Virus record (IMG/VR): IMGVR_UViG_2541047728_000005
Strand: one strand, 5' to 3'
DNA: 47,804 bases
Source of the DNA: a virus
Taxonomy: Duplodnaviria > Heunggongvirae > Uroviricota > Caudoviricetes
Under the pieces are notes generated by a model. The model had not been told where the DNA came from. It made no database searches and saw nothing but the letters and a program-made list of their open reading frames with translations. Below are positions 2,995-47,804 of this stretch, piece after piece. A program made the translations under genes and the position numbers. The stretch's first letter is position 1, and each line of letters begins with the position of its first letter.

Positions 2995-2996
2995 AA

Positions 2997-3998
2997 TTAA
3001 TACCCATTAATTACTCTTCGGACATCAATCGAGGTGGTATAACCACTAGTCCCAATTGAATGCACAGCTTTCGATATAAGATATTTTCCAGAAAATGAAC
3101 CGAATCCCTCCAGATTTATAGTTACACCAGCTACCAATCTGGTGTCTCCAACCAATACTAAAGATCCGGTATTTTGATATCTATTTTTAAGCCGCAAAGC
3201 AGCCTTTGCCTTACGTTTTGCTTCATCTAAATTAGCTACCAGTTTTCTTATCTTAAGATTCGACCCTTCTTCTACGGATGGATCTACCCAAGTATACGAA
3301 AGCGACTTTCTTTTTTTAGGTACGCGATATTTGCACGTGCAACTTTTATACAAATCTGTAGATTGTGTGCTAAAGCTATATCTGATTATCTCATCAATAC
3401 CTAACGTAAGCGTAGCGATAGGATCTTTTTGCTCAAACATCTCTTGAGCAAATATTATTAATTGGCTATCAGTGACCTTTAACGACAACCCTTCATCCTG
3501 GCAAAGTCGATGGAGAAATTTTAAATCGCTTTCCTCCATTTGATCTTCACGCGCATAATATGGATTACTATCACCATCAATAAGAAACAACAGTTCAAGG
3601 TTAGCTAATTTAGCTATAGAAGTTGCTATATCTTTAAGAGTTGTTTTTTCCCATGCATTACTTTTTAAATCACGTCTAATGCCTGATGAAACAGGAACAG
3701 AAACAGCAGTTACCTCAACCACAGAAGGTGGTCCAGAGCAAGTTATGCCATCTACCTGGAATTTCCCGCACTCAAGGACGATTTGATTTATAGGCTTAAA
3801 GCTCAAATCAATAAAATCACCCTTTTTAGGTGTCCAGTCTCCAGACCATTTCCCATCATCATTTTTTAATATAATAGAAATATCATCGACCTGACCATCT
3901 TCATTATCTGTATAAGACATTGACAAAACATCAGGTGACATATGAGCGGTAATATTTACATTCTGATATATAACATCAAAAAGCGTTTTACGTAACAC
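2997..3998 (-). CDS. Tail protein D-like (P2 gpD / Mu gpP late control D family)
   Basis: 333-aa ORF downstream of tape measure and X-like gene, as in Mu/P2 tail operons. Confidence 0.55.
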   Translation of the reverse strand: MLRKTLFDVIYQNVNITAHMSPDVLSMSYTDNEDGQVDDISIILKNDDGKWSGDWTPKKGDFIDLSFKPINQIVLECGKFQVDGITCSGPPSVVEVTAVSVPVSSGIRRDLKSNAWEKTTLKDIATSIAKLANLELLFLIDGDSNPYYAREDQMEESDLKFLHRLCQDEGLSLKVTDSQLIIFAQEMFEQKDPIATLTLGIDEIIRYSFSTQSTDLYKSCTCKYRVPKKRKSLSYTWVDPSVEEGSNLKIRKLVANLDEAKRKAKAALRLKNRYQNTGSLVLVGDTRLVAGVTINLEGFGSFSGKYLISKAVHSIGTSGYTTSIDVRRVINGY

Positions 3999-9728: not shown

Positions 9729-10214
9729 TTAGATAAACTCCTGAGACTGAATATTCTGAGGCTTTAATACTAGCCACGTTCCAGTTGCTTCCGTTATCCA
9801 ATATGGATATGGTTGATCATCAAACATTCGCCATCTGATATCACCCTGAAAGAGAAATTTCTCTTCAAGTAAAGGCTTCTCCTGAAAATGAAACATCATC
9901 CTTTCAAGAAGAGCCATTACCCATTCATATCCAGTATGGTCCTCACAAAAACCACCTAGAAGAAACTTAACCTTAACTTCATCCGTTTCAGGCTGCATTC
10001 CTCCTTCCGTGGGCCTGATAATCACATGAGGAAATTCTGGCGGTTTATCTGGAGATGGTTGTGATTTAGGAGGCAAGTACCCTTTAAATATTGTTGGAAC
10101 AAACAATTTAATATCGCTGTCTGTTTCATCATAAGGAGGCCCCTGCACTAATAAATCATGGAAAACCTCATGTTCCAACCGATTTTTTATTGCATCTATC
10201 AAAAGATTAATCAA
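9729..10214 (-). CDS. Hypothetical head-tail joining / tail completion protein
   Basis: 161-aa ORF in structural operon. Confidence 0.4.
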   Translation of the reverse strand: MINLLIDAIKNRLEHEVFHDLLVQGPPYDETDSDIKLFVPTIFKGYLPPKSQPSPDKPPEFPHVIIRPTEGGMQPETDEVKVKFLLGGFCEDHTGYEWVMALLERMMFHFQEKPLLEEKFLFQGDIRWRMFDDQPYPYWITEATGTWLVLKPQNIQSQEFI

Positions 10215-10555
10215 ATCGGCATTCCTCTGTTAGTATTAACAGTGAGAGTTATTTCCAATACACCAACATTATCTGATACTTCATCAACAATATAATTTTT
10301 ACCGTTGATTTTCATTGACTGATCTTTGACAGGGAGAACAGGAAAATCTTTTCTTGAAACAAATAATATTATTTGCCCCTGATTTATTCCCTCTGCAAAC
10401 TCAGCATATGAGCGTTTATTCCGCTCATGAATAAGGTCTGTATCAATAACGGCAAGGATATCCTTGCCGTCTATGTTATATGTATCGGCAAACTCTTTTT
10501 CATTGAGGAATATTGCAGAAATATCTTGCGCTATAACCTCTTTGAAGGAGTTCAT
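10211..10555 (-). CDS. Head-tail connector / head closure-like protein
   Basis: 114-aa ORF between capsid and tail genes. Confidence 0.4.
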   Translation of the reverse strand: MNSFKEVIAQDISAIFLNEKEFADTYNIDGKDILAVIDTDLIHERNKRSYAEFAEGINQGQIILFVSRKDFPVLPVKDQSMKINGKNYIVDEVSDNVGVLEITLTVNTNRGMPI

Positions 10556-10947: not shown

Positions 10948-11991
10948 TTAAACCACCTTAGCCACCAGATAGGCATCAGCCACACCAGGATTAGGCAGTG
11001 GAGATGACTTCATGGCAACATAACGGCCAGCCGGCTTACGAGTTACCCAAGTGTCTGGAACTCGTGGTGACTCAACAATCGTTAGAGTCTTTTCGGCGTC
11101 ATCTACAAGCTCTACAGCACCATACAGCATCGTTCCTCGACCAGGAGAGCCAAAGAGGATCTTATCTTCCGGTACTAATGGTTCAGGTTTTCCTGTTTTA
11201 TCATTGCGAATAAGTTCGTCGTAACCATAAAAATCGACACCTTCAAGATTGCCATAATGAGTTACGCCTTCTTCTAACTCTTTAGGCTCAATATACCCAA
11301 GCTCTTTTCGGCGATTATCAAGATATTTAGTTACTGCTTCATTTTTAACGAAGGCATCAACAACTTTTGCGCCCATTACGGCAACACGAGGTGTAAAACC
11401 TGAAGTTAGTGATACCCGACGTTTCCAGTTGCGAACATTGACTAACGGATCTGATTTTGCTGCACTCCATAAATCATCACCTGTCAGTTCAAGATATGGT
11501 TTATCTCCTTCCTCTTCAGGCCAAAAATAAACTGTGTCATCCACTCCTTCACCAACAATATCAACCTGCCCCGTAAACAAGACTTGTGCACACATCCATT
11601 CTTCACGGCGGTTAACCATTTCATCAAGCTCAAGCAAATCTTTACCTAATTGCTCGGCGGCTCGTTCTGCTGGCGATTTTGCGTTGTAAATATTCTCACC
11701 CGGAAGCCTGTTTAAAAGCAGCTCGGCTGTTGTTACCAAATCAGGTGCAACAAGTGGTGGCTCCAGAGTTCTCGTTACAAAGCCGCGTCGCTCAACGGTT
11801 TTTGAGCCAAAACCTTTACCAACAAACGGAGCCATAGTACGGCCACCGCGAACAAAATCCAGATCAACTTTCTTTGTATTAAAGGTCTGAACACCAGGAA
11901 AAAAGGTACGAAGAAGAAAACGACGAGCCTTGAAATTCTGAATAACAGGCTCAAGCATCGTACGTCGTTCAAAAATATCAATATTCGGCAT
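10948..11991 (-). CDS. Major capsid protein, lambda gpE family
   Basis: 347 aa; N-terminal ...RRFLLRTFFPGVQTFNTKKVDLDF and C-terminal ...PDTWVTRKPAGRY...NPGVADAYLVAKVV resemble lambda gpE. Confidence 0.85.
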   Translation of the reverse strand: MPNIDIFERRTMLEPVIQNFKARRFLLRTFFPGVQTFNTKKVDLDFVRGGRTMAPFVGKGFGSKTVERRGFVTRTLEPPLVAPDLVTTAELLLNRLPGENIYNAKSPAERAAEQLGKDLLELDEMVNRREEWMCAQVLFTGQVDIVGEGVDDTVYFWPEEEGDKPYLELTGDDLWSAAKSDPLVNVRNWKRRVSLTSGFTPRVAVMGAKVVDAFVKNEAVTKYLDNRRKELGYIEPKELEEGVTHYGNLEGVDFYGYDELIRNDKTGKPEPLVPEDKILFGSPGRGTMLYGAVELVDDAEKTLTIVESPRVPDTWVTRKPAGRYVAMKSSPLPNPGVADAYLVAKVV

Positions 11992-23180: not shown

Positions 23181-23450
23181 TCACTCATCATCTCCTGCCG
23201 CACATACAACCTCACAAAAAACATCAGCGGAATGTTTCTTTTTGAATGAATGGCGCTCAAAACCGCACTCAATATCAGGCGCAAAAACATCCACCACATA
23301 CGGTCTTTCAGAATGTTTGTTTTCCCAACGATAAACCGTAGTGACGTTGAAATGTTTTAACGCTTCACGGAACTCAACGCTGCCCGTCAGGTTTTTTGAG
23401 GTCAGGTATTGCAGGAGGTTTTTTACTACTTCACGGTCTTGTACTTTCAT
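23181..23450 (-). CDS. Hypothetical protein, first gene behind conserved promoter-leader cassette copy 1
   Basis: 89-aa ORF; ATG preceded by conserved CCGGAGATAACCCG leader/RBS. Confidence 0.5.
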   Translation of the reverse strand: MKVQDREVVKNLLQYLTSKNLTGSVEFREALKHFNVTTVYRWENKHSERPYVVDVFAPDIECGFERHSFKKKHSADVFCEVVCAAGDDE

Positions 23451-23457
23451 CGGGTTA

Positions 23458-23562
23458 TCTCCGGTTTAACCAGGGCGGGTATCGCTCGGTTTCGGGTATA
23501 ACCATAGGAAATTTTTTCCCACCTGTAAAGCACTTTTTATATAAATATATAATTATATAATT
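23458..23562 (-). promoter_or_regulatory. Conserved promoter-leader cassette, copy 1, with upstream palindromic TATA-rich array
   Basis: ~105 bp near-identical to 30406..30520 and 39875..39985; contains TTTACA-N17-TATGGT on minus strand and TATATAATTATATAA palindrome. Confidence 0.6.
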
Positions 23563-24144
23563 CTATGCCACTTGCCAGAGAGCATCATGCAACTGGATAC
23601 CTCCATTGCACTGGTTGCCCCAGCCATGCCAACCATCAGGTAAATCACCGCGAGCAAACAGCTCAATACGAGGAACATCACCTAACAGCCTTACCAGCTT
23701 GTCACGAACCACATCAGGCTTCCGAGAATGCTCCAGACGAGGCGATGTAAACGACTGAATGATCCCCGCATCAAGGCGGGTCGGCAATTTGCCTTTTACC
23801 GCAAACAAGCAATCTTCACTGTTTGCACGAGTCATATGCCCCATCCCCAGCTTATCTGGTTGTCGGCTACCACATTTGTTCCATGTGAAGCCCTTCATGG
23901 TCATAAGCCTGAATCCCCATGCTTTCACCACCAGCAACGCTTCTTCTGGCTGAGTCGGAACCCACCACATGGCCAACAAACACGATTCAGGATTAGCAAG
24001 CTGCCAGACAGGAATACGAGCAATATCCTCAGCTTTCATCGTTGAATACTTAAAACCAGCTCCACGATTCCCATCCTTACACTTATCTTTGTATTCCCAG
24101 GGGGGATCTGCATAAATCAGATTAAACAATGCAATTGCCTCCAT
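23563..24144 (-). CDS. DNA N6-adenine methyltransferase, MT-A70 family
   Basis: 193 aa with N-terminal catalytic motif IYADPPWEY. Confidence 0.8.
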   Translation of the reverse strand: MEAIALFNLIYADPPWEYKDKCKDGNRGAGFKYSTMKAEDIARIPVWQLANPESCLLAMWWVPTQPEEALLVVKAWGFRLMTMKGFTWNKCGSRQPDKLGMGHMTRANSEDCLFAVKGKLPTRLDAGIIQSFTSPRLEHSRKPDVVRDKLVRLLGDVPRIELFARGDLPDGWHGWGNQCNGGIQLHDALWQVA

Positions 24145-24452
24145 GTTAGTTGTGCCTCCGGCGCTTATCTCCGGCAGTCATAACGCTGGCCAGCTCTACA
24201 GCAGACGCAACGAAAAGGGCACTAACCAGACTGATTAATGCCCTTGCCTGTTGTGTGCCGGATATCGCCCGACAACGCTGTTTTGGTAACACGGCTACAG
24301 TTCCGTGCCGCTCCAGCTTTTACCCCTTTGCGGATAACAGGCCCTGCCTGTAACTTAGCCCCACGTTCGCCCGAAATGCGCACCAGGCACGCATAAAGAT
24401 GAGCACGAAGGAAGTAACTCCACCGCGCTTATCTTTATGTGTGAGAGTGAAT

Positions 24453-24528
24453 TGGTGGCCCCTACCGGATTTGAACCGATGACCGTGCGATTATGAGTCG
24501 CCTGCTCTAACCACTGAGCTAAGGGGCC
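24453..24528 (-). tRNA. tRNA with CAT anticodon, tRNA-Ile2 (lysidine)-like; could alternatively be Met
   Basis: Minus-strand GGCCCCTTAGCTCAGTGGTTAGAGCAGGCGACTCATAATCGC...GGTTCAAATCCGGTAGGGGCCACCA; cloverleaf with 7-bp acceptor stem, encoded CCA; 5' 42 nt match my recollection of E. coli ileX. Confidence 0.85.
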
Positions 24529-24539
24529 ATATTTGATCT

Positions 24540-24621
24540 GTTTGTCTGGTGTGGCGCCGCGCACGAAAATCCCAGCCAATAAATTCAGGATTTTTGGGCG
24601 CGGCGGCATATCAGACAAACA
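24540..24621. repeat. Nested inverted repeats flanking upstream side of tRNA gene
   Basis: gtttgtctg...cagacaaac (9 bp) enclosing gcgccgcgc...gcgcggcg and aaaatcc...ggatttt. Confidence 0.5.
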
Positions 24622-24667
24622 TGGTTGATGCGTGCGCCCATGAGAAAAGCGCATAGAATGTTGTAAC

Positions 24668-24700
24668 TATATATTTATATAATTATAGAAATATATATTA
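24668..24700. promoter_or_regulatory. TATA-rich palindromic repeat array (same family as parA-upstream repeats)
   Basis: tatatatttatataattatagaaatatatatta between spanin genes and tRNA. Confidence 0.45.
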
Positions 24701-24907
24701 CTTGGGGCAGTTGATTTCCCATGCCCTGTTATGAGCCAGAATATCTTTCTTTGTCTGGCGGTCCATAACATCGATATCGTGATCAGTCAGGTAGATGGGC
24801 TTTACCCAATCACAGGCGGTATCAACCACCACCGGGACGCTTCCACGACTCCCGCAGCTCGCGATCAACATCGTCATCAGCCATATGGTTAACACTCTGC
24901 TGTACAT
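24698..24907 (-). CDS. o-spanin (Rz1-like outer membrane lipoprotein)
   Basis: 69-aa ORF with signal peptide and lipobox LIASC; overlaps 3' end of i-spanin gene. Confidence 0.6.
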   Translation of the reverse strand: MYSRVLTIWLMTMLIASCGSRGSVPVVVDTACDWVKPIYLTDHDIDVMDRQTKKDILAHNRAWEINCPK

Positions 24908-25100
24908 TGCCCACCTCTTTTGTCACTTCTATACGCCGCTCCGCAGTGGCTTTTACGGCGGCTGCATTCTCATTTATGCGCTGCTTTTCAGCTTCATCTT
25001 CGGCCTTTTCTCGCCCCTTCATACGACCAAAACCAAACGCGCCGAATGCAACCAATATAATTGTGCCAATAAATGACAAAACGGCCTTCAAACCAGTCAT
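24822..25100 (-). CDS. i-spanin (Rz-like)
   Basis: 92-aa ORF, N-terminal TM helix then charged coiled-coil; directly downstream of endolysin. Confidence 0.6.
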   Translation of the reverse strand: MTGLKAVLSFIGTIILVAFGAFGFGRMKGREKAEDEAEKQRINENAAAVKATAERRIEVTKEVGNVQQSVNHMADDDVDRELRESWKRPGGG

Positions 25101-28976: not shown

Positions 28977-29275
28977 GCCACAGCCCCTCTCAACGGCTTA
29001 ACTTTGGCTAATAAGGTGTTAAACAACATGGAGTTAGGATTCATGCCAAATGGCAATTCCGGTTTAGCGGAGTAGTACAGGCAACCATTTATTTTCCTGG
29101 TTGTTATCTGTCCTTCGGCAACCATGCTTCTCAGTCTGCAACGCATAGAGTTCTGCGACACACCAATGTGCTCCGCGATTACGTCCACTTTTGAACATGG
29201 GTGATCGGTCAGGAAATTAATCACATCTTGGGGGTTAATAATTTTGCGTTTCATTGTCGAGGCGTCCTTATACAT
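28973..29275 (-). CDS. Putative winged-helix DNA-binding protein
   Basis: 100 aa; segment DVIAEHIGVSQNSMRCRLRSMVAEGQI resembles wHTH; preceded by TATA-rich array. Confidence 0.4.
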   Translation of the reverse strand: MYKDASTMKRKIINPQDVINFLTDHPCSKVDVIAEHIGVSQNSMRCRLRSMVAEGQITTRKINGCLYYSAKPELPFGMNPNSMLFNTLLAKVKPLRGAVA

Positions 29276-29301
29276 TTATATAAATATATAATTCTATATA
29301 C
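29271..29301. promoter_or_regulatory. TATA-rich palindromic repeat array
   Basis: tacatttatataaatatataattctatatac. Confidence 0.45.
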
Positions 29302-29320
29302 GGCGGGAGACATCCCGCCG
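29301..29320 (-). terminator. GC hairpin, possible terminator or protein-binding palindrome
   Basis: cggcggga-gaca-tcccgccg, 12 nt after stop of 29332..30399; weak U-tract. Confidence 0.35.
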
Positions 29321-29331
29321 TAGGCTTACTG

Positions 29332-30399
29332 TCAGGCTTTCAATAGCGATTCTTTCAGATATCGGGCATCAGCCAGGGCGTTTGGAGTAATCTTGCGAAC
29401 CCATGCATTACGGGTTGGACTCCACTTAAAGGCGCGTGATTTAAGCAGCGAACGAATGTTTGCCTCTGGTTTGCCAGGGAAATAAAACAGGATGCGGTTA
29501 TCCTCTGGATCTATCTCCATAGAAAAGCCGTCGTATTCTTCGCGCTGTGCTCCTGTTACAGACTTGACCGATTCAAGCTCCTTAATACGGCTCTGTAGTC
29601 GTTTGATTTCGGCGTTATTGTTGCTCAGTGCGTATGAAGGGAATCCGATGCGCCCACAGAAATCTCCGGCCAGTAACTCTTTGGCTTCGCTTTCTGTAAA
29701 CCTGAGATCGATTAATGCAGAAAGCTGCTGTATTTGGTCTTTTTTGTATTTGCGAATGGCCTTATTTGCGGCCTTCATTTTGACGTGTGACTTCATGCAG
29801 CCTTGCAGCTTACGAAGCAACTTAAATAGCGCATCAGGATCATCAGACGAAATTCCATTACGACCAACACCTGCGGCTTTGCTCTCGTAGTGTGATGCTT
29901 TACTTTCGCATTCAACAAACGCTTTTCTGAATAACGCATCAGCTTTAGACAAACGGCGGCGATGGCCTTTCGCGCTATAATGGTCAACTAAAATCGGCTG
30001 GCCTAACGGGATCACATCCAACAGGTCATGCGCTCGCTTATGCGCTACCGCACCTTCTTTTCTGGCTTTTTCTGCACGAGCAATATATCGGGCAAGACGC
30101 GCGTTCTGGCGTTCCTGATAGGTGTTTACGTAATCATCTCCGCGCTGCTGCTGTTCAAGCCATGCTTTGCGCAGATCTTCTGTTACATCCACCAGCTCCG
30201 CAGGGATACAACCAGTTTGGGCTTCATAAGAGTAACCATCCTCATAGATACGCCCATCGTCTTCAACAAAGAAAAAGGTTTCGTGCTCATCGCTTTTGAC
30301 CATACGACCATTAACATGGCGTAATAGGTAGCCAGTATCAGTGCTTAACAGGCTGTTAGGGTTGTTGATCCAGTCAGAAATAATTACTTGTTTATTCAT
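29332..30399 (-). CDS. Hypothetical 355-aa protein (possibly DUF3560-like), first gene behind cassette copy 2
   Basis: Track ORF starts inside conserved leader; start moved to ATG at 30399 preceded by CCGGAGAAATCTG. Confidence 0.5.
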   Translation of the reverse strand: MNKQVIISDWINNPNSLLSTDTGYLLRHVNGRMVKSDEHETFFFVEDDGRIYEDGYSYEAQTGCIPAELVDVTEDLRKAWLEQQQRGDDYVNTYQERQNARLARYIARAEKARKEGAVAHKRAHDLLDVIPLGQPILVDHYSAKGHRRRLSKADALFRKAFVECESKASHYESKAAGVGRNGISSDDPDALFKLLRKLQGCMKSHVKMKAANKAIRKYKKDQIQQLSALIDLRFTESEAKELLAGDFCGRIGFPSYALSNNNAEIKRLQSRIKELESVKSVTGAQREEYDGFSMEIDPEDNRILFYFPGKPEANIRSLLKSRAFKWSPTRNAWVRKITPNALADARYLKESLLKA

Positions 30400-30405
30400 C
30401 AGATT

Positions 30406-30520
30406 TCTCCGGTTTAACCAGGGCGGGTATCGCTCGGTTTCGGGTATAACCATAGGAAATTTTTTCCCACCTGTAAAGCACTTTTTATATAAATCTATAA
30501 TTATATATTTATAGATTTTC
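30406..30520 (-). promoter_or_regulatory. Conserved promoter-leader cassette, copy 2, immediately downstream of Q-like gene, with palindromic ATCTATAA...TTATAGAT array
   Basis: Near-identical to copies at 23458..23562 and 39875..39985. Confidence 0.6.
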
Positions 30521-30568
30521 GATGTTCCCGATGTCTACACACCATCAAAACAGCTCAAAATGACACTT

Positions 30569-34221: not shown

Positions 34222-34241
34222 AAGCGGGCTAACGCCCGCTT
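34222..34241 (+). terminator. Hairpin after 33843..34217, possible terminator
   Basis: aagcgggc-taac-gcccgctt. Confidence 0.4.
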
Positions 34242-34245
34242 ACAT

Positions 34246-34346
34246 GATTATAGATTTATATAATTATATAAAACGCTTTTCATCCGCCAAAAAGTTGGTT
34301 ATGCTTACCTCGTTCTATAAATATAGATTTATAGAATTATATAACC
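34246..34346. repeat. Two TATA-rich palindromic repeat arrays upstream of parA (candidate centromere/operator)
   Basis: gattatagatttatataattatataaaacgc and ctataaatatagatttatagaattatataacc; related arrays at seven other loci. Confidence 0.55.
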
Positions 34347-34367
34347 AAACACATGGAGTCTCGACAA

Positions 34368-35534: not shown

Positions 35535-35557
35535 TAAAAAAGGCCCCCGAAGGGGCC
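35535..35557 (-). terminator. Rho-independent terminator oriented for minus-strand transcripts
   Basis: Minus strand GGCCCC-ttc-GGGGGCC followed by TTTTTTT; 7 nt after stop of small ORF 35564..35686. Confidence 0.65.
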
Positions 35558-35563
35558 TAATCG

Positions 35564-35686
35564 CTACTTGCTGCTAATGTTTATCGTCACATTCAGAGCG
35601 TTATCAGTAATCTTCCAACCCTCCCCATGTGGCGTAAACAAAGCCCCAGTAACAACGATAAAAATACACATACAGTATTTTTTCAT
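35564..35686 (-). CDS. Small hydrophobic peptide (40 aa), candidate type I toxin-like or small membrane protein
   Basis: MKKYCMCIFIVVTGALFTPHGEGWKITDNALNVTINISSK; AAGGG RBS 7 nt upstream; strong terminator immediately downstream. Confidence 0.45.
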   Translation of the reverse strand: MKKYCMCIFIVVTGALFTPHGEGWKITDNALNVTINISSK

Positions 35687-35917
35687 TGTATGGCCCTTAC
35701 AGGCCGTTTCACGGCATCCCCACCGACGAAAACAACGCGAGAGCAAGCACGGCTGCTTGTGCTTGCATGTACGGCAACGGAGAATCCTCCCCTAAAGTCG
35801 GTGCCCGGGTGCGAATCGGCGGGAAGGTCCACAGGTATTTTACGATTATTTTAAGATTAGTAATAGGAAAGAAATTAAACGAAAAAACTCGTTTATTTTC
35901 ACAAAATCAGTAACCTA

Positions 35918-36179: not shown

Positions 36180-36279
36180 GCGCCATTGGTGGACACTTTC
36201 CGAGCCGTAGCAAAATCTACGGTCGGGATTGGAACCCCGATAATCATCATGGCGCATACCGCGTTAGCGGTTTTTTTAT
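36180..36279 (+). ncRNA. Structured RNA segment ending at intrinsic terminator in antirepressor operon leader
   Basis: Hairpins CCGTAG-caaaat-CTACGG, CGGG-attggaa-CCCG, terminator ACCGC-gtta-GCGGT plus TTTTTTT at 36259..36279. Confidence 0.35.
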
Positions 36280-36442
36280 GCGTAAAGCACTGCTACACCC
36301 AAATTATGGTGGGGCGTGCGGGGGAGTCGTAAGACTCGCCGGATTCCATGGTGACCGGTAGTTCCAACCCTGTACGTCTCACCACCCAATGATTGGAACC
36401 AGACGGTGGTGAGTATCCTTAACCTTTAAGGGAACTATCACC

Positions 36443-39485: not shown

Positions 39486-39866
39486 TTACTTAACGAGGAA
39501 TAAAAATGGTTTATCGTTCGGCGGTGTAATCGGGGCTGGCTCGCTTTTGCTCATGCGATCAGTGTACCAGGCCAACTCCTTGTCAAAGTAAGCCTGATTA
39601 AAATAGGCCATGAATGTGGTTTCAAATCCATAACGACCGCTAATACGGAGCATCTGATTGCCGTTCTCTGTTTCCAGATATACCTGGGCACGTTCCTGAT
39701 TCTCCTTCAGCCAGGTTAAAGCCTCATCGCACGAGGACAAACGATACTCATCATCGTAGCCGTCATCGATGCGGCTTGAAGAAGAACGGCAAATCACGCC
39801 AACAGAACCAGCCAGGATAGTTTGAATTTTAAGGAAAGCGTTTTTGCGGATTTTAATCATGCTCAT
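39486..39866 (-). CDS. Hypothetical protein with N-terminal signal-like hydrophobic segment, first gene behind cassette copy 3
   Basis: 126-aa ORF; ATG preceded by conserved CCGGAGATAACCCG leader. Confidence 0.45.
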   Translation of the reverse strand: MSMIKIRKNAFLKIQTILAGSVGVICRSSSSRIDDGYDDEYRLSSCDEALTWLKENQERAQVYLETENGNQMLRISGRYGFETTFMAYFNQAYFDKELAWYTDRMSKSEPAPITPPNDKPFLFLVK

Positions 39867-39874
39867 CGGGTTAT

Positions 39875-39985
39875 CTCCGGTTTAACCAGGGCGGGTATCG
39901 CTCGGTTTCGGGTATAACCTTAGGAAATTTTTTCCCACCTGTAAAGCACTTTTTATATAAATCTATAATTATATAATTCTATGAG
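39875..39985 (-). promoter_or_regulatory. Conserved promoter-leader cassette, copy 3, with TATA-rich array
   Basis: Near-identical to 23458..23562 and 30406..30520 (single a/t difference in 'aaccttagg'). Confidence 0.6.
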
Positions 39986-39988
39986 CGC

Positions 39989-40013
39989 AAAAAAGCCCCT
40001 TTGCAACAGGGGC
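39989..40013 (-). terminator. Rho-independent terminator after higA
   Basis: Minus strand GCCCCT-gttgcaa-AGGGGC followed by TTTTTT. Confidence 0.65.
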
Positions 40014-47606: not shown

Positions 47607-47804
47607 TTAGCACTCACCAATTAATCGTACATAAGACACAGGCTGGAAAGCACCGACAATACCAACACCACCTGAAACATTGGTTGCTTGCGAAAATGTA
47701 AATAGTGTTCTTGCCGACTTTGCACTCTTGATACTTCTTAACGTATCCTCCAACATCTCTTTCGAAGGAACAGCACCATCAAAAGAGTTAATCGAAGCAA
47801 CAAT
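47607..47804 (-). CDS. Tail protein I (gpI-like), 3' part continuing from 1..479 across the circular junction
   Basis: Reading frame from 479 continues through 47709 to TAA at 47609..47607; 47710..47804 duplicates 1..95. Confidence 0.65.
   Translation of the reverse strand: MVASINSFDGAVPSKEMLEDTLRSIKSAKSARTLFTFSQATNVSGGVGIVGAFQPVSYVRLIGEC

Follow-up and report, generated by a model that had tools for sequence, protein, structure and literature searches.

A tRNA-Ile2 gene of the P1 trnI lineage, flanked by conserved hairpins, on a 48-kb phage-plasmid of Escherichia coli

Introduction

A tRNA gene with a CAT anticodon, framed by inverted repeats, lies between the lysis genes and a DNA methyltransferase gene in the stretch of phage DNA analysed here (47,804 nucleotides, referred to below as the window). 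The locus raises the question of whether this tRNA reads AUA or AUG, what its carrier may gain from it, and whether the inverted repeats belong to the tRNA or to the element around it. We addressed these points by examining the structure and isotype determinants of the tRNA, its relatives, the codon usage of the element, and the conservation of the intergenic region in related elements.

Structure and isotype of the tRNA gene

ARAGORN identified a single tRNA within the window, a 76-nt gene with the anticodon CAT at 24453-24528 on the minus strand. It scored 67 bits against the Rfam tRNA model RF00005 (gathering score 29), and its cloverleaf has an energy of -28.4 kcal/mol, the same as the minimum free energy, bearing out the standard cloverleaf described in an initial annotation of this DNA. 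The acceptor stem consists of 7 bp, all Watson-Crick, and the D stem of 4 bp. The T stem has 5 bp including one U.G pair, and the 3' CCA is encoded. The anticodon stem comprises four pairs (G-C/C-G/G-C/A-U) and a G27xA43 mismatch. An ORF overlapping the tRNA on the minus strand (24355-24654, 99 aa) was dismissed as spurious.

The initial annotation had stated that the first 42 nt match E. coli ileX, and this proved exact. The tRNA agrees with K-12 ileX at every one of positions 1-42 and 66-76, and the overall identity is 89.5%, compared with 86.8% for ileY, 74% for metT/metU and 61% for the initiator metZ. The two identical blocks span the acceptor stem, in which C4-G69 and C5-G68 are kept, as well as the D arm, the CUCAUAA anticodon loop, the discriminator A73 and the CCA end; the anticodon stem-loop is the same at positions 28-42. 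The eight differences are found at positions 43, 44, 49, 50, 51, 59, 63 and 65. Three of these are changes from U43 to A43, which converts G27.U43 to G27xA43, from U44 to C44, and from G59 to A59. The others represent a compensatory rebuilding of the T stem, in which pair 49-65 changes from G-C to A-U, 51-63 from U-A to C-G, and 50-64 from C-G to U.G. While ileX and ileY, whose lysidine-modified products decode AUA, are chromosomal, the gene examined here is plasmid- or phage-borne.

As to the isotype, the initial annotation had proposed ARAGORN as a check, and the program returned 'tRNA-Met'. The same label is found in the GenBank records OR545053-55 of the Yersinia phages vB_YpM_39/41/44, which represent the virion form of the element. 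An elongator or initiator tRNA-Met, reading AUG and not AUA, would also agree with the facts that a CAU anticodon, when unmodified, pairs with AUG and that unmodified tRNA-Ile(CAU) acts as tRNA-Met (PMC1635315), and the G27xA43 mismatch is a deviation from the G27.U43 of E. coli tRNA-Ile2. The ARAGORN and GenBank labels, however, are based on the anticodon alone, and the identity values given above clearly favour ileX over the tRNA-Met genes. In E. coli, C4-G69 and C5-G68 are positive determinants for TilS, while the corresponding pairs of tRNA-Met, U4-A69 and A5-U68, act as negative determinants (PMC2500205; PMC1635315). Both positive determinants are kept in our tRNA. Acetylation of tRNA-Met by TmcA needs C27-G43, C30-G40 and G44 (PMC2500205), and all three are absent, the corresponding residues being G27/A43, G30-C40 and C44. 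The hallmarks of initiator tRNA, namely the C1xA72 mismatch, A11-U24 and three G-C pairs at 29-31/39-41 (PMC1635315), are also absent, with G1-C72, C11-G24 and the anticodon stem described above in their place. In addition, PGAP labels the identical gene in near-identical RefSeq plasmids as tRNA-Ile, and the P1 record annotates trnI, a member of the same lineage, as 'tRNA-ile2 (CAT) gene; 89 pct identical to ileX'. A tRNA-Met is therefore very improbable, and the label is very probably wrong. Judged from its determinants, the gene is an ordinary, already annotated tRNA-Ile2, in agreement with the ileX-type assignment of the initial annotation. A possible effect of the G27xA43 mismatch, which is common to P1 trnI, on TilS or IleRS should be kept in mind as a caveat for tRNA-Ile2 function.

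Relatives of the tRNA

Phage-borne tRNA-Ile2 genes have long been known, and the gene examined here already carries the label tRNA-Ile in RefSeq. Its lineage is that of P1 trnI, which is 94.7% identical with four differences, one of them C50-G64 in place of U50.G64. Copies of trnI are also found in P1-like/D6-like phage-plasmids; among these, the tRNA of the P1-like pPSS-08-1_2 is 100% identical and that of pE2863-2 is 97.4% identical. P1 trnI, the P1-like copies and our tRNA share A43, C44 and a T stem of the form (A)YCGG/CCGGU, which distinguish them from ileX. P1 and the element in the window are both phage-plasmids of E. coli, but the surroundings of the gene differ. P1 trnI lies beside tciC and ban, while our tRNA has the lysis cassette on one side and an MT-A70 gene on the other, and P1-like plasmids harbour clusters of up to four tRNAs, in contrast to the single tRNA found here. 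No flanking similarity is observed between the P1-type loci and the window. One tRNA lineage, with up to 100% identity, is shared by two phage-plasmid families of E. coli that are unrelated to each other, a hint that the gene has passed between co-resident elements by exchange or gene conversion. For biology at large, the gene changes little.

A second phage-borne tRNA-Ile2, ileZ of Stx-converting lambdoid phages, is 84.2% identical to our tRNA. Both genes adjoin the lysis/late region and lie on the late-gene strand. They differ in that ileZ is accompanied by two tRNA-Arg genes (ileZ-argN-argO), downstream of Q and upstream of stx, and precedes the lysis genes, whereas our tRNA stands alone after the spanin genes. 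The ileZ-argN-argO cluster is usually regarded as a supply of rare-codon tRNAs for late genes; our literature search on ileZ/argN/argO found nothing relevant.

Within the family of the element itself, E. coli members retain the tRNA even where the identity of the flanks has fallen to ~95%. In a distant relative, designated L021, the corresponding locus harbours a diverged tRNA of 85.5% identity whose acceptor stem and anticodon loop are unchanged.

The carrier element

The window corresponds to a phage-plasmid of E. coli of the myovirus type and ~48 kb. RefSeq contains near-identical plasmids, among them a 48.5-kb plasmid of the quality-control strain E. coli ATCC 25922, whose element is 95-99% identical and whose tRNA gene is likewise labelled tRNA-Ile. 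PGAP annotation of a 99.97%-identical plasmid includes RepA, ParA and a RelE/ParE toxin-antitoxin pair, and no integrase is annotated. Of 5426 complete genomes of E. coli, 69 contain the element family. Among the matches listed, which together are expected to span nearly all 69 records, every record is a 31-94-kb replicon; the totals for the 69 genomes count one place as 'chromosome', and no chromosome-sized record occurs among the matches listed. We found no published name for this 48-kb phage-plasmid family in the literature, and no paper in a search on the vB_YpM phages. An identity with the phage-plasmid 'pSLy3' was considered and rejected, as the pSLy3 group falls in the SSU5 supergroup. 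The elements of that supergroup are presumably ~100 kb, unlike the 48-kb element here.

tRNA genes serve many phages and islands as integration sites, and the initial annotation had raised the possibility that a core shared with a host tRNA locus would indicate an att site. The blocks of 42 and 11 nt exactly shared with ileX might be taken to suggest that the element integrates into host ileX or ileY, with the tRNA gene as the attachment site or as a marker of it. This is not supported, as an integrase is not annotated and all listed copies are replicons of 31-94 kb. The element has the RepA, ParA and toxin-antitoxin pair named above. Moreover, the gene is a complete tRNA gene and not a 3' fragment, and the long block of identity corresponds to its 5' part. 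We consider an attachment site extremely improbable.

AUA codon usage

The suspicion that the element is rich in AUA codons was confirmed by counting. AUA accounts for 211 of 13155 codons in the element (16.0 per 1000), or 25% of the Ile codons. In a K-12 sample, consisting of one 50-kb core region, it accounts for 36 of 14790 codons (2.4 per 1000), or 4.2% of the Ile codons. The difference is ~6.5-fold (Fisher p = 2e-36). Genome-wide, AUA occurs in K-12 at ~4 per 1000; as the sample lies below this value, the enrichment may be nearer to 4-fold. Among all codons, AUA shows the third-highest ratio between element and host, and its absolute excess is second only to that of AAU. By module, the frequency per 1000 is highest in the tail and baseplate genes (21.4), followed by head/packaging (17.6), early (10.1) and lysis (10.0) genes.

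The initial annotation had proposed that the tRNA could support translation of late genes, and the enrichment with its peak in tail and baseplate genes agrees with this. Other observations do not. The major capsid gene contains no AUA in its 347 codons, and capsid, sheath and tube combined show 7.9 per 1000. The genes of the most abundant, highly expressed virion proteins thus avoid AUA, which weakens the link to late genes. AGA and AGG exceed AUA in their over-representation, yet the element carries no tRNA-Arg. Furthermore, the Salmonella relative pAR-0407-1 has no such tRNA and nevertheless reaches an AUA frequency of 12.7 per 1000, indicating that the tRNA is no precondition for AUA-rich genes. 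With these caveats, the codon statistics are consistent with codon supplementation.

We also considered that the main value of the tRNA may lie in counter-defence: instead of matching codon usage, it would replace or outnumber host tRNA-Ile2 when induction triggers a host anticodon nuclease or a general depletion of tRNA. The similar AUA usage of the tRNA-less relative would be compatible with this, and the occurrence of the tRNA lineage in two unrelated phage-plasmid families fits selection on the tRNA itself. We know of no E. coli nuclease directed at tRNA-Ile2, and the codon statistics alone already provide a sufficient reason for keeping the gene. Phage tRNAs have been proposed as a counter to tRNA-targeting defences (PMC10264068). 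Of the anticodon-loop changes which that work ties to nuclease escape, our tRNA displays no sign, as positions 28-42 are identical to those of host ileX. We judge a role mainly in counter-defence to be distinctly unlikely. Rather, the gene probably encodes a functional tRNA-Ile2 that augments the scarce ileX/ileY tRNA of the host in the decoding of AUA. With natural relatives that carry or lack the tRNA, the locus provides a compact and testable case for codon supplementation.

Hairpins flanking the tRNA gene

The initial annotation had reported a nested inverted repeat (24540..24621) and a 9-bp inverted repeat (24392..24439) on the two sides of the tRNA. Both are real, and both turned out to be parts of longer structures. 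The former is a long imperfect palindrome at 24539-24621 (hairpin 1) with arms of 34 nt each (24539-24572 and 24588-24621, 85% complementary). The latter is the core of a hairpin at 24388-24443 on the minus strand (hairpin 2) with arms of 25 nt each (24388-24412 and 24419-24443, 80% complementary) and a 6-nt gap. Viewed on the tRNA strand, and correcting the earlier description, the long hairpin 1 lies upstream, 10 nt from the tRNA, and the shorter hairpin 2 lies downstream, at a distance of 9 nt. The RNA of hairpin 1 on the tRNA strand folds with -40.3 kcal/mol (z -5.6) and that of hairpin 2 with -28.4 kcal/mol (z -6.4). In neither case was any of 200 shuffled sequences as good, and both structures are thus well beyond chance.

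Conservation in relatives was then considered. Hairpin 1 is conserved in relatives both with and without the tRNA. The share of paired cells in its alignment is 92.9%, compared with 30-47% in slid controls, and four pairs show compensatory changes. Hairpin 2 is nearly invariant across the E. coli group, and the homologous stem in the relatives L021, L010 and L022 covaries, with four both-sided changes and G.U pairs on the sense strand. In these three, the stem closes a highly conserved insert of ~97 nt and not a short loop. As the number of independent lineages in the hairpin alignment is about three, support from covariation is moderate at best.

A search of Rfam 15 gave no family at or above the gathering score for the flanking hairpins. 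Below threshold, there were only generic miRNA-precursor hairpins (31-34 bits versus 70-86) and a rydB-like match at 24147-24202. When Rfam was searched by E-value, no family was obtained for hairpins 1 and 2 or for the segments X and Y of the relatives described below. Neither hairpin is followed by a U run on either strand, as would be expected of a rho-independent terminator. The hairpins are absent from the loci of this tRNA in P1, in P1-like plasmids and in Stx phages. Taken together with their presence in relatives without the tRNA, this indicates that the hairpins belong to the backbone of the element and not to the tRNA.

Variable content between the hairpins

The MT-A70 protein was used to scan viral contigs, which gave 80 loci; 11 of them (L012-L022) are similar in the intergenic region, and the rest were left out. 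Between the stems of hairpins 1 and 2, the E. coli group contains the tRNA alone. The slot in L021 holds extra hairpins, a segment X of ~135 nt and the tRNA. In Salmonella pAR-0407-1 it holds X and a 73-nt non-tRNA segment, and in L022 X followed by a longer non-tRNA stretch. A further segment, Y, sits inside the covarying hairpin 2 stem in the relatives. Segments X (by eye) and Y (from alignment) each appear much more similar across lineages than the backbone, whose identity is ~75%; this suggests recent exchange. Segment X of L021 is no more structured than shuffled sequences (z +0.67).

These features raise the possibility that the two hairpins bound a mobile or recombination-prone slot, and that the tRNA is a cassette moving through it. 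The lineage-dependent content, the likeness of X and Y, and the P1-like plasmid with a 100% identical tRNA in unrelated flanks would all be in line with this. On the other hand, hairpins 1 and 2 are each self-complementary and are not inverted repeats of one another, and so they are not terminal inverted repeats. PGAP annotates no adjacent recombinase or transposase. The tRNA-Ile2 loci of P1, P1-like plasmids and Stx phages are without such hairpins, which means that the tRNA did not travel with them. The distance between the tRNA and hairpin 2 is the same in L021 and the window, and an ancestral tRNA with later indels fits this better than repeated insertion. The sole deletion seen, a loss of 102 nt just downstream of the tRNA in pESBL3215, which keeps the tRNA, falls outside the slot and is flanked by two TCGGGCGA direct repeats. 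A mobile slot thus seems doubtful, and we favour a tRNA residing in a backbone intergenic region.

Organization of the intergenic region

On the upstream side, the region is preceded by the i-spanin gene (24822-25100; PHROG 1026, E 5.9e-32) and the o-spanin (Rz1-like) ORF that overlaps it (24698-24907, minus strand; PHROG 1275 'Rz-like spanin', E 2.9e-33). The latter closes the lysis cassette. Downstream of the tRNA unit, the first gene encodes an MT-A70 family DNA methyltransferase (23563-24144, minus strand; Pfam PF05063, E 1.5e-23; PGAP annotation), a position shared with the Salmonella relative and with L021 and L022. No function was obtained from Pfam or PHROGs for a 135-aa protein encoded upstream of the holins.

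An AT-rich motif at 24668-24704 begins at the o-spanin stop codon and belongs to a repeat family (D2) of the type TATAG(A/T)(A/T)TTATATAA. It is one of seven copies, each located before a gene start, and the Salmonella relative, which has no tRNA, carries an almost identical segment. The motif may act as a promoter or operator; a scan with the sigma-70 consensus found no promoter adjoining the tRNA or at the motif. A scan of viral contigs for the motif together with GTTACAACATT recovered only contigs already known, and exact-pattern scans of genome contigs with the same combination and with the conserved MT-A70 leader gave no match. At the other end, a hairpin at 24209-24245 on the minus strand resembles an intrinsic terminator. 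It has a 14-bp stem with two U.G pairs and a 3-nt loop, followed by UUUUCGUU, and thus combines a stem-loop with the U tract of a rho-independent terminator. It folds with -24.8 kcal/mol (z -4.0) and is located ~65 nt before the MT-A70 start codon. A simple terminator consensus scan missed this hairpin, and folding revealed it. L010 and L021 have an equivalent stem with a CUCUUUUCGUUG tail, although the stem sequence differs.

The order of AT-rich motif, leader hairpins, tRNA, hairpin 2 and terminator-like hairpin looks like that of a small transcription unit. The initial annotation had proposed a transcription/processing unit or a recombination hotspot. The unit-like anatomy and the varying slot content are in keeping with these proposals; the hairpins themselves, however, belong to the backbone and not to the tRNA.

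A further reading is that the gap between lysis cassette and MT-A70 gene is a conserved regulatory RNA/DNA module, in which hairpin 1 is the active element, the slot swaps structured RNAs (tRNA, X, Y), and Y is an undescribed small RNA. In all three lineages, the plus-strand RNA of hairpin 1, whose strand is antisense to the genes, is the more stable one (-55.9 versus -40.3 kcal/mol in the window). It could serve as an antisense or single-strand-DNA signal, or as an element for processive antitermination or processing. The antitermination idea remains speculative, as Pfam and PHROGs assigned no Q-like antiterminator in the element. As a whole, we consider a regulatory module unlikely.

Returning to codon supplementation, gene structure, isotype determinants, lineage, codon statistics and hairpin conservation together suggest a course of events in which expression, lysidine modification, translation benefit and hairpin role are predictions. 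The tRNA would be transcribed on the strand it shares with the lysis and packaging genes, either from the promoter-type AT-rich motif or by read-through from the lysis cassette. RNase P acts at the 5' end of tRNAs and exonucleases at the 3' end; these host enzymes would mature the transcript, in which the CCA end is already encoded. Host TilS would convert C34 to lysidine through the C4-G69 and C5-G68 determinants, and IleRS would charge the tRNA with isoleucine. The tRNA would then read AUA and supplement the scarce ileX/ileY tRNAs, chiefly for tail and baseplate genes. Hairpin 1 as a leader, hairpin 2 and the terminator-like hairpin would be structured parts of the backbone intergenic unit, and not of a tRNA cassette. 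Between the AT-rich motif and hairpin 1, there is also a small 7-bp stem-loop at 24633-24653 on the minus strand, for which the evidence is weak (z -2.2); a small stem-loop, differing in sequence, occupies the corresponding position in L010 (z -2.0) and in L021 (z -3.2).

A tRNA-Ile2 of the P1 trnI lineage

The sole tRNA of the window, found with ARAGORN at 24453-24528 (-), has the anticodon CAT and scores 67 bits with Rfam. It forms a regular cloverleaf, the energy of which equals the minimum free energy. The initial annotation had proposed a match of the first 42 nucleotides to E. coli ileX and an Ile2-type isotype. The match is exact; positions 1-42 and 66-76 agree with K-12 ileX throughout, and 8 differences lie between the two blocks. 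Overall identity is 89.5% to ileX, 86.8% to ileY, 74% to metT/metU and 61% to the initiator tRNA. The acceptor stem carries C4-G69 and C5-G68, which are recognised by E. coli TilS, the U4-A69 and A5-U68 pairs of tRNA-Met being negative determinants (PMC2500205; PMC1635315). The elements needed by TmcA, the tRNA-Met acetylase (C27-G43, C30-G40 and G44; PMC2500205), are all three missing from the window tRNA, and none of the hallmarks of initiator tRNA is present in it. PGAP labels the gene tRNA-Ile in all RefSeq copies seen. The isotype is thus of the Ile2 type. The label tRNA-Met, given by ARAGORN and in phage GenBank records, was considered and rejected; it reflects only the anticodon, and the four lines of evidence favour tRNA-Ile2. 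Records OR545053-OR545055 call the gene tRNA-Met, probably an anticodon-only label of this kind. Within a recognised region, A43 is the single departure from E. coli tRNA-Ile2; it replaces the G27.U43 wobble pair by a G27xA43 mismatch.

A43 is shared with trnI of phage P1, as are C44 and the rebuilt T stem. In the P1 record, trnI is entered as 'tRNA-ile2 (CAT) gene; 89 pct identical to ileX', and it differs from the window gene at 4 positions. The tRNA of the P1-like plasmid pE2863-2 differs from that of the window at 2 positions, and ileZ of Stx phages is 84.2% identical. Similar tRNAs occur in more than 1100 phage records, and the window tRNA is a known gene type of known lineage. The tRNA at 3001-3076 of the P1-like plasmid pPSS-08-1_2 (NZ_AP027678.1) is 100% identical to that of the window, and those of other P1-like plasmids are 94-97% identical. 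Similarity between the P1-like plasmids and the window ends at the borders of the tRNA gene, which, together with the complete identity in pPSS-08-1_2, suggests gene conversion or exchange of the tRNA between two phage-plasmid families. In pPSS-08-1_2 and a second P1-like plasmid (L006), tRNA-Ile2 is clustered with tRNA-Ser(UGA), tRNA-Thr(UGU) and tRNA-Arg(UCU); these decode AUA, UCA, ACA and AGA, all four of which belong to the five codons with the strongest over-representation in the window against K-12.

The replicon is a phage-plasmid

The window is a complete circular replicon with a 95-base overlap between its ends. The identity of 1-95 and 47710-47804 is this circular-contig overlap and not a biological repeat. 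The E. coli plasmid pMB9698_3 (NZ_CP103471.1) is 99.97% identical in reverse complement. Its PGAP annotation lists the complete myovirus complement (portal, capsid, sheath, tube, tape measure, baseplate and fibres), together with terminase, a lysis cassette, an XRE repressor, RepA, ParA and a RelE/ParE pair, but no integrase. This gene content makes the element a phage-plasmid. The virion genomes of the Yersinia phages vB_YpM_39/41/44 are 99.1-99.3% identical to the window; in their GenBank records (OR545053-OR545055), nearly all proteins are labelled hypothetical. Of 5426 complete E. coli genomes, 69 contained near-identical DNA, and among the records listed all were of 31-94 kb. Such DNA also forms the 48,488-bp plasmid of ATCC 25922. 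The idea that the tRNA marks an att site was not supported, as the element encodes no integrase, carries the whole tRNA gene and is extrachromosomal in all records listed.

AUA codon usage

We counted codons in 66 complete coding sequences mapped from the PGAP annotation, and used 42 annotated genes of one 50-kb K-12 region as the host reference. The enrichment of AUA anticipated in the initial annotation was evident. AUA accounts for 211 of 13,155 codons in the element (16.0 per 1000; 25% of Ile codons) and 36 of 14,790 in the K-12 region (2.4 per 1000; 4.2% of Ile codons; Fisher p = 2e-36). By element/host ratio AUA ranks third, after AGG and AGA. Values per 1000 were highest in tail, baseplate and fibre genes (21.4), followed by immunity and maintenance (17.7), head and packaging (17.6), early (10.1) and lysis genes (10.0).

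This pattern fits codon supplementation by the tRNA-Ile2, but three facts temper this. The major capsid gene (10948-11991) has no AUA in 347 codons, against the element mean of 16 per 1000, and the three most abundant virion proteins combined have 7.9 per 1000. The skew in AGA/AGG exceeds that in AUA, yet no tRNA-Arg is carried. The syntenic Salmonella plasmid pAR-0407-1, with no tRNA at the locus, still uses 12.7 AUA per 1000, a small difference from the window (p = 0.03) that accompanies a higher G+C content (47.4% vs 44.5%). A role of the tRNA in the plasmid state is also conceivable, since the repressor gene is AUA-rich (36.7 per 1000). Near the capsid gene, a head-tail gene (10211-10555) reaches 61 AUA per 1000.

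Taken as a whole, the initial finding stands and is ordinary: the gene is a tRNA-Ile2 of the P1 trnI lineage that had been annotated before, carried by a phage-plasmid whose genes are rich in AUA. New here are only observations on how the non-coding unit around it is built, and these are modest.

Architecture of the non-coding unit

The gap that holds the tRNA measures 677 nt. On the gene strand, the o-spanin stop codon (24698; PHROG) and an AT-rich motif (24668-24704) are followed by a weak small stem-loop (24633-24653), hairpin 1 (24539-24621) and, after 10 nt, the tRNA. Hairpin 2 (24388-24443) begins 9 nt past the tRNA, followed by a conserved stretch of about 140 nt and a terminator-like hairpin (24209-24245), whose 14-bp stem includes two U.G pairs and leads into a UUUUCGUU tail. 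The MT-A70 start codon (24144) lies about 65 nt further on. Should the AT-rich motif mark promoter or operator sites, as proposed below, the tRNA would own one such region, with a terminator after it. The family member pESBL3215 lacks 24273-24374, a stretch of 102 nt cleanly deleted between direct repeats of TCGGGCGA; the loss falls between hairpin 2 and the terminator-like hairpin, and the tRNA, both hairpins and the terminator are retained. The leader of the MT-A70 gene, 246 nt long, has a folding z of -4.0. Directly upstream of the MT-A70 start, at 24147-24202 (-) and likewise in pAR-0407-1 (2995-3058) and in the viral contigs L021 (2927-2986) and L022 (2928-2991), the rydB sRNA model gives a match below threshold, with 26-29 bits across lineages against a gathering score of 50.

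The inverted repeats reported to flank the tRNA are both real and longer than initially described, with arms of 34 nt in hairpin 1 (z -5.6) and 25 nt in hairpin 2 (z -6.4); in either case 0 of 200 shuffles folded as well. Neither matched an Rfam family. For comparison we used three diverged relatives, pAR-0407-1, L021 and L022, whose MT-A70 protein is about 76% identical to that of the window. All three contain the AT-rich motif, small stem-loop, hairpin 1, hairpin 2 stem, leader and terminator-like hairpin. Only L021 has a tRNA; it is 85.5% identical, with acceptor stem and anticodon loop unchanged, and its distance from hairpin 1 is about 300 nt greater than in the window. Hairpins of the window type are absent at the tRNA-Ile2 genes of P1, P1-like plasmids and Stx phages. 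As they are kept in relatives without the tRNA and not found beside these other tRNA-Ile2 genes, the hairpins are part of the backbone locus and not of the tRNA.

The share of cells that pair in hairpin 1 is 92.9%, compared with 30-47% when partners are slid, and four pairs are changed on both sides, a count that 6 of 500 shuffles attain. With about three independent lineages only, the alignment gives moderate covariation support. The RNA is more stable from the window plus strand, antisense to the genes, than from the gene strand in all three lineages (-55.9 vs -40.3, -49.6 vs -45.7 and -54.9 vs -45.7 kcal/mol), and mismatches that are A.C on the gene strand are G.U on the opposite strand. 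The predicted energies are suggestive, not decisive, for hairpin 1 acting on the opposite strand or as single-stranded DNA. Covariation across lineages is seen in the hairpin 2 stem too, where four pairs change on both sides and the G.U pairs fall on the gene strand.

The content of the interval between the hairpins varies among lineages. This lends some support to the proposed recombination hotspot, but nothing points to a dedicated recombination mechanism. In the relatives, the hairpin 2 stem closes a nearly invariant insert of ~97 nt, where the window has a short loop. This segment, Y (L021 2587-2683; pAR-0407-1 ~3298-3400 (-); L022 ~2590-2690), is nearly identical between lineages of only ~75% backbone identity, while its closing stem covaries. 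The whole unit of Y and stem gave z -4.0 and no Rfam match was found; Y may be an undescribed small RNA. A second segment of ~135 nt, X, upstream of the tRNA position (L021 ~2340-2478; pAR-0407-1 ~3480-3610 (-); L022 ~2250-2385), is nearly identical by eye in the three relatives and missing from the window; its structure showed no excess over shuffles (z +0.67).

Other repeats and RNA matches in the window

The AT-rich motif belongs to a TATAG(A/T)(A/T)TTATATAA-type family with seven intergenic copies, each close upstream of a gene start (23538-23574, 24668-24704, 29269-29305, 30486-30522, 34241-34277, 34314-34350 and 39954-39990); two of them precede parA. Three copies head dispersed direct repeats of 113-121 bp, each upstream of a minus-strand gene start (23447-23567, 30395-30515 and 39863-39983), with a mutual identity of 89-98% in ungapped register and 96-99% by BLAST. 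The repeats fill their intergenic gaps, and in each the AT-rich motif is joined by a promoter-like pair (TTTACA-17-TATGGT), a leader that is identical in all three, a ribosome-binding site (GGAG) and the ATG. One promoter-plus-leader module seems common to three operons. We take the motif as a probable mark of promoters or operators, possibly a common one for a regulator that the element encodes; several ParB/Srx-domain proteins are among its products.

Three Rfam matches exceeded the gathering score, all within the region of immunity and anti-repressor genes and adjoining ORF6N and Rha: ryfA (35536-35832 (-), 141.8 bits), isrK (36204-36277 (+), 70.2 bits) and C4 antisense RNA (36302-36389 (+), 84.3 bits).
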